Of a stretch of 64,000 nucleotides of DNA, positions 1 through 5,069 are shown piece by piece. Where the stretch lies: assembly GCA_947625255.1 (NCBI GenBank), contig CANQNT010000014.1, positions 5,977 to 69,976 on the forward strand, in the 5' to 3' direction. The stretch is from an uncultured Acetatifactor sp. GTDB lineage: Bacteria; Bacillota; Clostridia; Lachnospirales; Lachnospiraceae. Numbering within the stretch: position 1 is the stretch's first letter; each line of letters opens with the position of its first letter. A program made the translations under genes and the position numbers. The notes beneath the pieces were generated by a model. That model had not been told where the DNA came from and searched no databases. It was given only the letters and a program-made list of their open reading frames with translations.

Positions 1-595
1 CATCGTCATTGATATACAAAACCGGTTTGATATTGGCTACCGTACCAAGAACCGCCGAGGTTTTGGACAGACGTCCTCCCCGATACAGATACCCCAGATC
101 ATCCACCGTGAACTGCACGCATAAGTTAGGCACCAATCCCCGCAGAATATCGGCGGTTTCCTCCAGAGACTTTCCTTCCTTTTTCAAAGAAAGAGCCTTC
201 ATGATCAAAATTGCCTCGCCCAGGGACGCGGACAGAGTATCCACTACCTCTACACGGAAGTCGGGAATTTCCTCCATCATCTGCCTCCCAACCATCTGCA
301 CGTTGCCGCAGCCTCCGCTTAAGGCGGAAGAAAAGCTGATGTGAAGCACATCCTTGCCCTCTGCGGCGTACGCGGCGAACATCTCCTCAATAACGGCAGG
401 ATTGCTCGCCATAGTTCCCACTTTCTTCTGAGCCCTCATGGCAGCATAAAACTCCCGAATGGACATCTCCCGATCGGCGCCATAGACCTCCTCTTCCACC
501 GTATAATAATGCGGAATCACCCCAATTTCGTTTTCCAGGATAAACTCCCGGGGCAGATCTGAATTACTCTCCGTTGTGATAACAAAATCCCTCAT
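1..595 (-). CDS. DegV family fatty-acid-binding protein (3' end runs off window)
   Basis: Manual minus-strand translation from ATG at 595: MRDFVITTESNSDLPREF...HISFSSALSGG...VVDTLSASLGE...DDLGYLYRGGRLS, typical DegV motifs. GGAGGAG RBS upstream. Not in the ORF track. Confidence 0.88.
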   Translation of the reverse strand, partial: MRDFVITTESNSDLPREFILENEIGVIPHYYTVEEEVYGADREMSIREFYAAMRAQKKVGTMASNPAVIEEMFAAYAAEGKDVLHISFSSALSGGCGNVQMVGRQMMEEIPDFRVEVVDTLSASLGEAILIMKALSLKKEGKSLEETADILRGLVPNLCVQFTVDDLGYLYRGGRLSKTSAVLGTVANIKPVLYINDD

Positions 596-813: not shown

Positions 814-987
814 ATGTCTGACAAAAAATATACGAACCTTTATGACGATGGGAACATCCCAAACGAGGATCTTCCACAAAACAGCACTGATGACGCCGCC
901 AGCGATTCCGCCGGGTCAAAATATGACAACGTGGAACCGTTGCCGGAATCATCACGACCTCGGAAAGATGGACCGGGAGGGGATTAA
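814..987 (+). CDS. Small acidic 57-aa hypothetical protein
   Basis: ATG at 814 with GGAAGG RBS at 802-807, TAA at 985-987: MSDKKYTNLYDDGNIPNEDLPQNSTDDAASDSAGSKYDNVEPLPESSRPRKDGPGGD. Below the ORF-track size cutoff. Confidence 0.62.
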   Translation: MSDKKYTNLYDDGNIPNEDLPQNSTDDAASDSAGSKYDNVEPLPESSRPRKDGPGGD

Positions 988-1027
988 CCCCTCCTGGGTC
1001 TTGGCAATCATCTGGAAAGCGCCCTTT

Positions 1028-1606
1028 TCACACCTCCATGTCGATCCCGAGTCTGTCGAGCAGGGCCCTCTGCCCGGGGGCGATCTTCGACAGGACGGTT
1101 TCCCTTTCCAACACCACCAGATAGATCGTCTTCAACGCTTCGAGATCCTTCAGCCCAACCCCGTGCTCCTTATAGAGCCGCCGGCTCAGTGACGCCGTCT
1201 GCGCCGGAAACCGGTACCGGAAGTCTTCCGCCGTCCTCCTTCCGGCCTCCCTTCCCAGATATGACGTCGGCGACTCTTTCAGGATGATGAGTCTCAGGAC
1301 GTCAGCCCAATCCTCCCCCAGCGGCTTCTTCCAGTCCTCCGGGCACAGTTCCCAAACGGCTTTCGAATAACCGTATTCCCAGACCCCCACGTCTGTCAAC
1401 GTCACTTTTTTTCTGTTGGTTTTCACGACGCCTTCGGGGGTAATAATGCCGATGTAGGTGTCAACCGGCTGGGGGTATTTTTTCCCCGGCACTCGCCTTG
1501 AAGTGCGCTTGTAAAGATAGTAGTTGTCCCCCTTCCTTTTGACGGTTGTTCCCCGTGTATGTTGCTTTTGTACCCATTCCGGGTAGGTTTTTTCTGATTT
1601 TGGCAT
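1028..1606 (-). CDS. Hypothetical 192-aa protein resembling the termini of IS1634/IS4-like transposases, no DDE core
   Basis: Strong RBS (AAGGAGGGA). N-terminal KKGDNYYLYKRTSRRVPGKKYPQPVDTYIGII and C-terminal LSKIAPGQRALLDRLGI resemble transposase termini (recalled similarity, not searched). Confidence 0.6.
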   Translation of the reverse strand: MPKSEKTYPEWVQKQHTRGTTVKRKGDNYYLYKRTSRRVPGKKYPQPVDTYIGIITPEGVVKTNRKKVTLTDVGVWEYGYSKAVWELCPEDWKKPLGEDWADVLRLIILKESPTSYLGREAGRRTAEDFRYRFPAQTASLSRRLYKEHGVGLKDLEALKTIYLVVLERETVLSKIAPGQRALLDRLGIDMEV

Positions 1607-1631
1607 AATGTCCCTCCTTTTCCGTATGGAT

Positions 1632-1664
1632 GGTATAATACCTATACTATAAAGGCATTATACC
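1632..1664. promoter_or_regulatory. Operator-like 12-bp inverted repeat overlapping the putative promoter of the 192-aa gene
   Basis: GGTATAATACCT-N9-AGGCATTATACC (1 mismatch). The right arm contains TATAAT on the minus strand. Confidence 0.5.
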
Positions 1665-1681
1665 TCTACACAAAAAAAAAG

Positions 1682-1724
1682 TCGAGAGTTATGGGCAATT
1701 TGGTATCGCATCCATAACTCTCGA
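1682..1724. repeat. Perfect 13-bp inverted repeat (terminator or element-end junction)
   Basis: TCGAGAGTTATGG-N17-CCATAACTCTCGA, followed on the minus strand by a 9-T run. Confidence 0.6.
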
Positions 1725-1866
1725 TAAAATCAAGTAGTCATACAATATCATTATTTACCTTAAATTTCAATTTTCATGGCATTGGTGGATAAATTTACTA
1801 TCCGGCATGGAAATTCAAATCTAGGGCAAATACTTCTTTGATTACCTTTCCATTTTTTAGAAAAAA

Positions 1867-1913
1867 TAAAAGCGCCAGGAACCGCATAAACAAGCCATTT
1901 CCAGGCGCTTTTA
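1867..1913 (-). terminator. Hairpin immediately downstream of tmRNA
   Basis: TAAAAGCGCC(1867-1876)/GGCGCTTTTA(1904-1913), followed by a T tract on the minus strand. Confidence 0.65.
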
Positions 1914-1917
1914 CAAG

Positions 1918-2259
1918 TGGAGTAGACGGGAGTCGAACCCGTGTCCAAAAGCCTATCCCCTGTCCTTCTACTATCATAGTCTGTGTTCGCGGTTTGCCCC
2001 ATTCCCTCCCGTGTCAGGAAACAGACAATCTGGCACGTTTAGTAGCTTCATAATACGCCCGCACGCGCAAAGCTTAGCGTGTGTCGTTTCTCACATCGTC
2101 GATGCCCGGATTCCAGAGTGTGAGTGCCCTGGAGCGGACAGCTGCCCTTAGGCAGCGAGTGCTAAATTATCTTCAGCGTTTATTTTTATTTTGTGATTAA
2201 CGTGTCACAACGGATAGCTTCTCCAGCTTCAAAGCCCCTGTCGAAACCTTGACTACCCC
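1918..2259 (-). ncRNA. ssrA: tmRNA; tag reading frame at 2148-2177 encodes AEDNLALAA*
   Basis: 5' GGGGTAG pairs with 3' CTACTCC(A), including the G3-U70 wobble. T-arm GGGTTCGACTCCC. Tag ends in LAA-stop. Adjacent to smpB. Confidence 0.96.
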
Positions 2260-2365: not shown

Positions 2366-2842
2366 CTATATCCGGCTGGACTTAAACTCTCTTTGCGCCT
2401 CCCTCTCCTGGTCTTTCCTGGCGATGGATTCCCGTTTATCGTAGAGCTTCTTACCACGGGCCAGGCCCACCTCCACCTTTGCTCGGCCATCCTTAAAATA
2501 GACCTGGAGCGGAACCAGGGTATACCCTTTTTCCGCCACTTTTCCCGCCAGCTTGCGGATTTCGTATTTGTGCATCAAAAGCTTTTTCACCCGCAAGGGG
2601 TCCTTGTTAAAAATGTTCCCTTTTTCATAGGGGCTGATGTGCATTCCATAGACGAACACTTCTCCGTTTTCGATGCGAACGAAAGCTTCCTTGATGCTGC
2701 ATTTCCCCATGCGCAGAGACTTCACCTCCGTGCCATGGAGGGCAATCCCCGCTTCATAGGTTTCGTCTATGAAATAATCATGGTACGCCTTTTTATGATT
2801 GGCGACCAGCTTTTGTGATTCCTTTTTCACCATCATTTCCAC
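2366..2842 (-). CDS. smpB: SsrA-binding protein
   Basis: NKKA-like [26 protein letters not shown] and [13 protein letters not shown] motifs. Confidence 0.97.
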
Positions 2843-2972: not shown

Positions 2973-5069
2973 TCACCCATCCTTTTCCATCAACGAAAAC
3001 GTGTTCTCAGGCTCTTCTTCCGCCAGTTCAAACTCCACGCTTCTTGCGGCGCGGTCCGCGTCCACAACGCGCACCCGTACCGGCATCCCCAGCCTGTAGG
3101 TGATCCCGGTGGTTTCCCCTACCATTTCATAAGCGGCTTCATCAAAGACAAAATAATCCCCCGCAAGCCTGGACACATGGATCATTCCCTCTACCGTATT
3201 GGGCAATTCCACAAAGATTCCCCAGCTCGTAATGCCGGAAATAATTCCCTCAAAACACTGTCCGATCCGCTCTTCCATGAACTGTGCCTTTTTCAGCTTG
3301 TCCGTCTCCCGCTCGGCTTCGTCAGCCCGCCGTTCTGTCTGGGAGGATTGTTCACAGACCTGTGGCAAAATCGCCGCGTAATGGGCAATCCGCTCCTCCC
3401 CCAGCCGTCCCCGAAGCTGATCCTTGATGATACGATGGATCTGAAGATCCGGATACCGCCTGATCGGAGAAGTAAAGTGACAATAAAACTGGCAAGCCAG
3501 GCCAAAATGTCCCGTACTTTCCGTACTGTACCGCGCCCGCTTCATAGTGCGCAGGGTCAAGCGGCTGATCAGAGCCTCCTCTGGCGTTCCGGCAATTTTA
3601 TCCAAAAGCTTCTGAATCTCCTTGGGATGAATCTCCTGGTCGCTGACCCGGCTTCTGGCACGCCCGATGGACTTCATATAATAACCCAGATTATTAATGA
3701 ACGCGGAAAGCTTCATGATTTTCTTGGAATCCGGTACATCATGCACCCGATAAACAAAGGGCAGCTCCATCCAGTAAAAATGTTGCGCCACCGTCTCATT
3801 GGCGGCCAGCATAAAATCCTCAATGATGTCCGTGGCCACGTTCCGTTCATAGGGCTTCACTTCGAGAGGACGTCCCTTAGCATCCAACACAATCCTGCAT
3901 TCCGGAAAATCAAAATCCACCGCGCCGCGCTGCTTTCTCTTGGCCCGAAGTATTCCGGACAGCTTTGCCATTTGGCGGAACATGGGAACCAGCTCCCGGT
4001 ACGCCCGGAACTCCTCCCGCTCCACGATGGTTTCATCCTCGAGAATCGCTTTTACGGCGGTATAAGTCATTCTTTTATTCACGCGAATCACGGACTCACA
4101 GATTTCATAATCAACAACTTCTCCCCTGCCATCCACTGTCATCAGACAGCTTAAAGCCAGTCTGTCCTCGCCCTCGTTCAGCGAGCAGATTCCATTGGAC
4201 AGCGCATGGGGAAGCATAGGGATCACACGATCCACCAGATATACGCTGGTTCCCCGTTTCAGCGCCTCCTGGTCCAACGCGGAATTTTCCCACACATAAT
4301 TGGTCACATCCGCGATATGCACGCCCAAGTGATAATATCCATCCTGCAGAGAAAGGCTGACCGCGTCATCCAAATCCTTGGCATCCTCCCCATCGATGGT
4401 TACCATCGTCACGTCCCGCAGATCACGCCTGCCCGCCCGGTCCGCTTCTGAAACCTCCTGGGAAATCCTCTCCACTTGGTGCATGATTTTGTCACTGAAC
4501 TCCGCAGGCAGTTCAAATTCCCTCACAAGAGAAAGAATATCCACGCCAGGATCATCCATGTGGCCTAAAATCTCCACCACACGGCCTTCCGGATTCTTCC
4601 GGCCCGCTCCGTAATCCGTGATTTCCACCACGGCCTTGCTGCCGGTTACCGCTCCCCTGGAGCACTCCTTTGGCACGAAAATATCACGGGGCAGCTTCTG
4701 ATCGTCCGGCACCAGGAACCCATAATTCTCCCTGGAGCGGTCAAAAGTTCCAACCACCCGGCTCATTCCATGAGAAAGGATACGCAGCACCCGTGCTTCC
4801 TGACGTTTCCCGGACTTTCCGGTCAATACAACTTCTACCTCATCCTTATGAAAAGCGCCGCCCGTCTGGTCCTCCGGAATAAAAAGGTCATCGGGACGTC
4901 CTTCCACCTCCACAAAGCCAAAGCCTCTGGGATTGCTTAGAAAGGTGCCTTTCAGAACCTCTTGTTCGATTCTCTCCCGTGCTTTCGCAGCTTGCTTCCC
5001 TGACCCCGACACTTTCGTTTCCTGCTCCTTTTCCGCCCGCACCGCGTCACGTCTTACTTTTTCCAACAT
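2973..5069 (-). CDS. rnr: Ribonuclease R
   Basis: CSD GFGFV, RNB TIDGEDAKDLDDA and HFTSPIRRYPDL, C-terminal S1 domain; secG-rnr-smpB synteny. Confidence 0.95.
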   Translation of the reverse strand: MLEKVRRDAVRAEKEQETKVSGSGKQAAKARERIEQEVLKGTFLSNPRGFGFVEVEGRPDDLFIPEDQTGGAFHKDEVEVVLTGKSGKRQEARVLRILSHGMSRVVGTFDRSRENYGFLVPDDQKLPRDIFVPKECSRGAVTGSKAVVEITDYGAGRKNPEGRVVEILGHMDDPGVDILSLVREFELPAEFSDKIMHQVERISQEVSEADRAGRRDLRDVTMVTIDGEDAKDLDDAVSLSLQDGYYHLGVHIADVTNYVWENSALDQEALKRGTSVYLVDRVIPMLPHALSNGICSLNEGEDRLALSCLMTVDGRGEVVDYEICESVIRVNKRMTYTAVKAILEDETIVEREEFRAYRELVPMFRQMAKLSGILRAKRKQRGAVDFDFPECRIVLDAKGRPLEVKPYERNVATDIIEDFMLAANETVAQHFYWMELPFVYRVHDVPDSKKIMKLSAFINNLGYYMKSIGRARSRVSDQEIHPKEIQKLLDKIAGTPEEALISRLTLRTMKRARYSTESTGHFGLACQFYCHFTSPIRRYPDLQIHRIIKDQLRGRLGEERIAHYAAILPQVCEQSSQTERRADEAERETDKLKKAQFMEERIGQCFEGIISGITSWGIFVELPNTVEGMIHVSRLAGDYFVFDEAAYEMVGETTGITYRLGMPVRVRVVDADRAARSVEFELAEEEPENTFSLMEKDG

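Follow-up and report, generated by a model that had tools for sequence, protein, structure and literature searches.

In the stretch of Acetatifactor DNA that we analyzed (64,000 nucleotides, referred to here as the window), the gene that we call orfA is flanked upstream by the genes for tmRNA and SmpB and downstream by a DegV-type gene (Table 1). The original prediction described this gene as an intact 192-residue reading frame with a strong ribosome binding site, and we were able to confirm this, as the frame runs from ATG to TGA on the minus strand and contains no frameshift and no internal stop.

The gene is also equipped with start signals of its own. The promoter matches the sigma-70 consensus at 10 of 12 positions and is placed within a segment derived from an insertion sequence (IS), and a leader block that lies 3' of the promoter (TATAGTATAGG) is invariant across the copies of this IS. 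The 13-bp hairpin with its run of nine T residues is likewise conserved in IS copies, where it is found on the inner side of the left end, and it looks like an intrinsic terminator, which would block read-in transcription. On the other side of the gene, the GC-rich hairpin may terminate transcription of both orfA and a convergent putative ORF. The latter encodes 57 residues of low-complexity acidic sequence (814-987, plus strand), and its stop codon falls in the loop of the hairpin.

Table 1. Features at and around orfA in the window
Feature	Position	Strand	Remarks
DegV-type gene	2-595		Downstream of orfA
GC-rich hairpin	975-994		GGGAGGGG / CCCCTCC; non-IS DNA just past the right break point; read from sequence
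Whole IS-derived segment	1011-1733	-	Equivalent to nt ~43-765 of the intact 2.2-kb IS
orfA	1028-1606	-	Intact CDS of 192 aa (ATG to TGA)
Shine-Dalgarno sequence	1612-1619	-	AAGGAGGG; 6 nt before the orfA ATG; kept in IS-borne copies
Sigma-70-like promoter	1657-1685	-	-35 TCGACT (1680-1685), 17-nt spacer, -10 TATAAT (1657-1662)
Perfect 13-bp hairpin followed by T9 on the minus strand	1672-1724	-	Arms 1712-1724 and 1682-1694
Repeat common to tRNA gene 3' trailers	1752-1946		Includes terminator hairpin 1867-1913; abuts the left break of the IS remnant
tmRNA gene (ssrA)	1915-2259	-	Directly upstream of the IS remnant
smpB	2366-2842	-	Upstream of orfA, same strand

The repeat next to the left break point, about 200 nt long, takes in the terminator hairpin that follows the tmRNA gene and adjoining sequence. 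Other copies, 76-85% identical, follow the genes for tRNA-Pro, tRNA-Thr, and tRNA-Val or lie at two further sites; these copies, on contigs C3, C96, C76, C12, and C11, carry an insert of about 60 nt that the window copy does not have. The repeat is not IS sequence. A candidate left inverted repeat at about 1755-1775 was rejected because it is part of this tRNA-trailer repeat, and we also rejected the notion that the tmRNA 3' end had been duplicated as an att-type site, the mark of an integrated island, since the seemingly duplicated sequence is a generic trailer repeat found at several tRNA genes.

A family of proteins of about 190 residues

A word-indexed search with the protein encoded by orfA (OrfA) returned 1105 clusters (90% identity) at E<=1e-3, nearly all of them 189-195 residues in length and aligned over 100% of the query. 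With so many matching clusters, nearly all at full length, the reading frame is no product of chance. Using HMMER, we searched 1.8 billion representatives exhaustively (a library clustered at 50% identity) and found 459 members, with full-length homologues reaching down to 29% identity. Against the family as a whole, the window protein has 100% coverage at 90-29% identity, and its full-length alignment includes the conserved motifs YP.WV, G..YYLY..TS.RVPGKK.PQP...YIG.IT..G, EYGFS, and SP.SYL. In an alignment of 58 members, the most conserved block comprises residues ~18-62, which is where the N-terminal motif singled out in the original prediction sits. The nucleotide sequences of the window orfA and of its closest IS-borne copy, L004, are 86% identical (90% for the proteins), with a dN/dS of 0.09. 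The 190-residue form is therefore a conserved family with dN/dS below 1, a point that the original prediction had proposed to check. One variant of the protein is found on at least 1000 contigs, and a protein identical to that in the window is found on just 2.

All of the source names for family members are "hypothetical protein" (for example, WP_204864275.1 and WP_018596975.1). We found no credible match for the window protein in scans with Pfam, NCBIfam, and PHROG models, and scanning 58 family members with Pfam gave only scattered chance matches, none of which was to a DUF4338 or Mom-like model. In a profile search against PDB sequences the best match, at E 0.18, was noise, a plasmid search had no match, and an ESM Atlas search returned only unnamed clusters. 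We also noted two longer proteins, P0269 (989 aa) and P0249 (335 aa), in which only the N-terminal domain of OrfA (residues ~3-68, at 55-58% identity) is present, fused to unrelated longer sequence that in P0269 has a weak DUF4062 match; these could be cases of domain reuse or artefacts of gene calling.

The protein had originally been read as the two ends of an IS1634/IS4-like transposase lacking the catalytic core. IS1634-family transposases (NF033559) do have, like OrfA, a basic beta-hairpin-like motif near the N-terminus (Y-x-[YV]...R...G-K...[IL]-G), but OrfA has no DDE domain and no other region in common with them, and the likeness of the motif is statistically unsupported. When the OrfA family was compared by hhalign with five IS1634 transposases from relatives, the sole stretch to align, 31 columns long, was the hairpin motif Y-x-Y...G-K...G at the N-terminus, an alignment that is not significant (E 0.12, probability 0.5%), and the C-terminal 30 or so residues, also thought to resemble a transposase, had no match. 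NF033559, DDE_Tnp_1, and similar models had no match to OrfA at E<=10 and none among the 58 family members.

The parent element and its two-gene junction

Most of the OrfA matches are on contigs of 1-2.5 kb, which suggested that the gene is part of a repeat. By comparing copies at different sites, we defined an intact element of 2222 bp whose ends are inverted repeats of 18 bp without mismatch (CAGGGTTGTTTCATGAAG); target duplications of 10 bp were seen at two places (L024/L025 and L026). The order within the element is left inverted repeat, terminator-like hairpin, promoter, strong ribosome binding site, orfA, transposase, and right inverted repeat, where orfA encodes about 192 residues and the second gene, located about 38 nt downstream in the +1 frame, encodes an ISAs1-type DDE transposase of about 416 residues. 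The transposase matches NF033564 at 223-241 bits, compared to a cut-off of 70, and PF13808+PF01609, so it belongs to the ISAs1 family and not to the IS1634/IS4 group. An hhalign comparison of the OrfA family with these cognate transposases was not significant.

The transposase is directly downstream of orfA in L008-L011 and L022-L030. Among 80 genome loci drawn from one-genome-per-species contigs, it begins 38-50 nt after orfA in 77, and orfA orphans are rare (3/80). The same arrangement is found in all five of the distant relatives (P0239, P0255, P0227, P0174, and a paralogue on contig C17 of the window's own genome), where an ISAs1-type transposase follows or overlaps an orfA whose product is 29-35% identical to the window OrfA. 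A pairing this old and conserved argues for a functional partnership between the two proteins.

The hosts of the element are mostly Lachnospiraceae, and a complete Sellimonas genome contains four copies or more (L043, L045, L046, and L056). In other Lachnospiraceae, we observed derivatives with internal deletions (L065:3838-4758, L067:3838-5515, and L069:3839-5162) that retain both ends and an intact orfA, with most of the transposase gene gone; in L065, nt 1-837 of the IS are fused to ~2066-2133. These three are candidate non-autonomous elements.

In 43 distinct junctions, the transposase is read in the +1 frame with respect to orfA, and a conserved peptide in that frame (F-x-T-K-P-L-...-Y-M/F-...-P-D-P/Y-R) starts 7, 10, or 13 nt past the orfA stop; examples of junctions are at L004:2242-2290, L024:1521-1560, and L047:~4520-4620. 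In a test anchored on the downstream transposase alignment only, the ten codons upstream of the usual transposase ATG have a pN/pS of 0.55, compared to 0.85-1.19 in the other frames and 0.37 in a known coding region used as a control. The transposase frame thus bears a coding signature over the whole interval between the orfA stop and the annotated ATG. Depending on the lineage, ordinary transposase starts that overlap orfA occur as ATG or GTG at -53, as TTG at -11 or -5, or as ATGA-type overlaps (-1), and at 18 loci there is no canonical start upstream of the ATG at +37. There is no slippery site at the orfA stop, and the last sense codons vary among junctions. A search for longer forms found no fused OrfA-transposase protein, which is weak evidence, and no long fused form is present among the best 150 HMMER matches. 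The simple reading is that the two genes would be translationally coupled with variable start sites. Recoding of some kind, such as a programmed +1 frameshift where orfA stops, is also conceivable.

The window copy and its origin

Homology between the window and the closest intact copies (L004-L007, 86%) is confined to 1733-1011. The remnant retains the internal hairpin with T9, the promoter, the leader, the ribosome binding site, orfA, and about 20 nt past its stop, and it is missing the first ~42 nt with the left inverted repeat, the transposase gene, and the right inverted repeat. Allowing 3 mismatches, we found no IS inverted repeat anywhere in the window, and unlike in 77/80 relatives, no transposase gene is found downstream. 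The window gene is a full-length member of the OrfA family but an orphan, and none of the defining parts of the ISAs1 family (an NF033564 / PF13808+PF01609 transposase, the ends, the target duplication) is left at the locus. In the sister species that we examined, only the tmRNA and smpB genes are shared at this site and orfA is absent, and when 80 further species in the genus were searched, an OrfA homologue turned up in only 2.

As to copy number, which the original prediction had also marked for checking along with the flanks, the genome of the window (98.7% complete) has one orfA paralogue, the 35%-identical gene on C17 that is located beside a transposase containing stops, plus one orfA fragment. 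Its cognate transposases are all fragments or contain stops. The orfA fragment is accompanied by a transposase fragment (C2:51035-51678), and a transposase C-terminal half with two stops is present at C56:16378-16977. We rejected the C56 fragment as the missing half of the window copy: limited to residues 218-418, at 61% identity and with two stops, it is not contiguous with that copy. Every copy of this ISAs1-type group that we found in the assembly is dead. An intact partner transposase could be hidden, because draft assemblies frequently miss IS copies. Beside the C17 paralogue (L002, C17:57567-61130), we noted a 289-aa ORF and the start of another ORF (L002 2276-3145 and 3308-3562), the second of which has an N-terminus resembling reverse transcriptases of the retron/group-II type, so this region may be a defence locus.

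In our view, the window very probably preserves, as an immobile orphan remnant, orfA from a two-gene ISAs1-family IS that has decayed. A copy of the IS would have landed downstream of ssrA and would later have lost its first ~42 nt and everything beyond ~20 nt past the orfA stop. What was left over would be an immobile orfA, still equipped with a promoter, in a genome without a working partner transposase. Most likely, this orphan gene is a relic of recent age and not a gene of the host. Continued use by the host is possible, since the ORF is intact and has its own promoter and ribosome binding site.

Such use could take the form of domestication, which was also part of the original prediction. 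The host would then retain orfA because its product binds DNA and regulates in trans, for instance by repressing incoming related IS, in the way that truncated transposase inhibitors damp related IS copies. The intact ORF, promoter, ribosome binding site, and conserved leader are in keeping with this, as are the low dN/dS relative to the nearest relative and the presence of degraded related IS copies in the same genome. However, a low dN/dS is expected from the time that the gene spent in an active IS lineage and is silent on the period after truncation. Domestication is unsupported because orfA is absent at this site in all of the sister species examined and its homologues are sporadic in the genus, being found in only the 2 of 80 species mentioned above; orphans are also rare among the 80 loci, and the identical protein is on just the 2 contigs. 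We therefore regard domestication as improbable.

It is still less likely that the segment is a non-autonomous mobile element, that is, an orfA-only deletion derivative with both inverted repeats that is moved in trans. Derivatives of this kind do exist elsewhere (L065, L067, and L069), but the window copy is not mobilizable because it has no inverted repeats; it also has no target duplication, the genome has no intact transposase, and we found neither diverged inverted repeats nor a target duplication around 1011-1775 nor further copies of the 0.7-kb unit in the genome. Of the internally deleted or non-autonomous relic originally proposed, what stands is that the sequence is transposon-derived and that the catalytic transposase is missing at the locus. 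The weakest explanation, that an internal deletion brought together the two termini of an IS1634/IS4-type transposase, is hardly credible despite the N-terminal motif, since the protein aligns end to end with a separate gene whose normal full length is 190 residues, which is encoded upstream of a complete transposase, has no similarity to that transposase, and matches no transposase model.

Possible role of OrfA and significance for ISAs1 elements

Using AlphaFold2 with the family alignment, we obtained a confident model of OrfA with a pLDDT of 92 and a pTM of 0.68. It has an N-terminal four-stranded basic beta-sheet domain (residues ~18-62), a helical middle (79-160), and a small beta-hairpin plus helix at the C-terminus (162-186). 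Residues 1-70, which have a pI of 10.3, are better conserved than the rest of the protein. Searches with Foldseek and VIA-align, using both the full model and a model of the N-domain, gave nothing better than E 0.4 or Z 3.5. Structural matches to known DNA-binding folds (HTH, AP2/integrase arm-type, zinc ribbon) stay at noise level (best Z 3.3-3.5) and include the C-terminal domain of topoisomerase I (1yua, Z 3.3-3.4), DnaA domain IV (Z 3.0-3.1), and the arm domain of the HPI integrase (Z 2.3). That DNA-binding modules keep appearing among these weak neighbors of a predicted model may offer leads only.

Given where the gene lies, how its product is charged, and how tightly it is linked to the transposase, OrfA most likely serves the transposase as a DNA-binding helper or regulator, and we would give this role about an even chance of being correct. 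Like OrfA, the IS3 OrfA, IS1 InsA, and IS911 OrfA proteins are small and basic, are encoded first, and are tightly linked to the transposase frame, and as in this IS, the transposase of two-ORF families is in another frame and has little or no ribosome binding site of its own. In contrast to those upstream ORFs, OrfA has no detected helix-turn-helix and no sequence or fold relation to them, and the element has no slippery frameshift site and no fused product that we could find. The comparison concerns a possible mode of action, not membership in those families. A more specific and rather doubtful idea is that OrfA could be a sequence-specific DNA-binding subunit with a new fold that is needed by this subgroup of ISAs1 transposases, made either by itself or, if the orfA stop is decoded in a non-standard way, as the N-terminal portion of the transposase; stranded copies would act as repressors of related elements in trans.

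Elements of the ISAs1 family are described as single-ORF elements of 1.2-1.5 kb; they are treated as single-gene IS, and their mechanism has barely been studied. The intact relatives of the window copy resemble members of this family (ISAs1, IS1358, and the E. coli H-repeat/ISEc1) in having a transposase with NF033564 and PF13808+PF01609, short terminal inverted repeats starting with CAGGG, and a 10-bp target duplication. They differ from the family in their length of 2.2 kb and in the extra conserved gene upstream. In the literature that we searched, we found no description of two-gene ISAs1 elements, although such elements may already be catalogued in ISfinder. The feature in the window is ordinary IS debris, and the gene family to which its OrfA belongs is an undescribed variant.

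A very abundant IS of gut Lachnospiraceae thus has a second conserved gene that has been overlooked by public annotation, one with no family, name, or recognizable fold, and the linkage of this gene to ISAs1-type transposases holds at identities as low as 29%. Knowing orfA would improve the annotation of IS in gut genomes, where orphan copies are now labelled hypothetical proteins, and a dedicated partner protein would alter the picture of how the ends of ISAs1 elements are recognized or how these elements are regulated.
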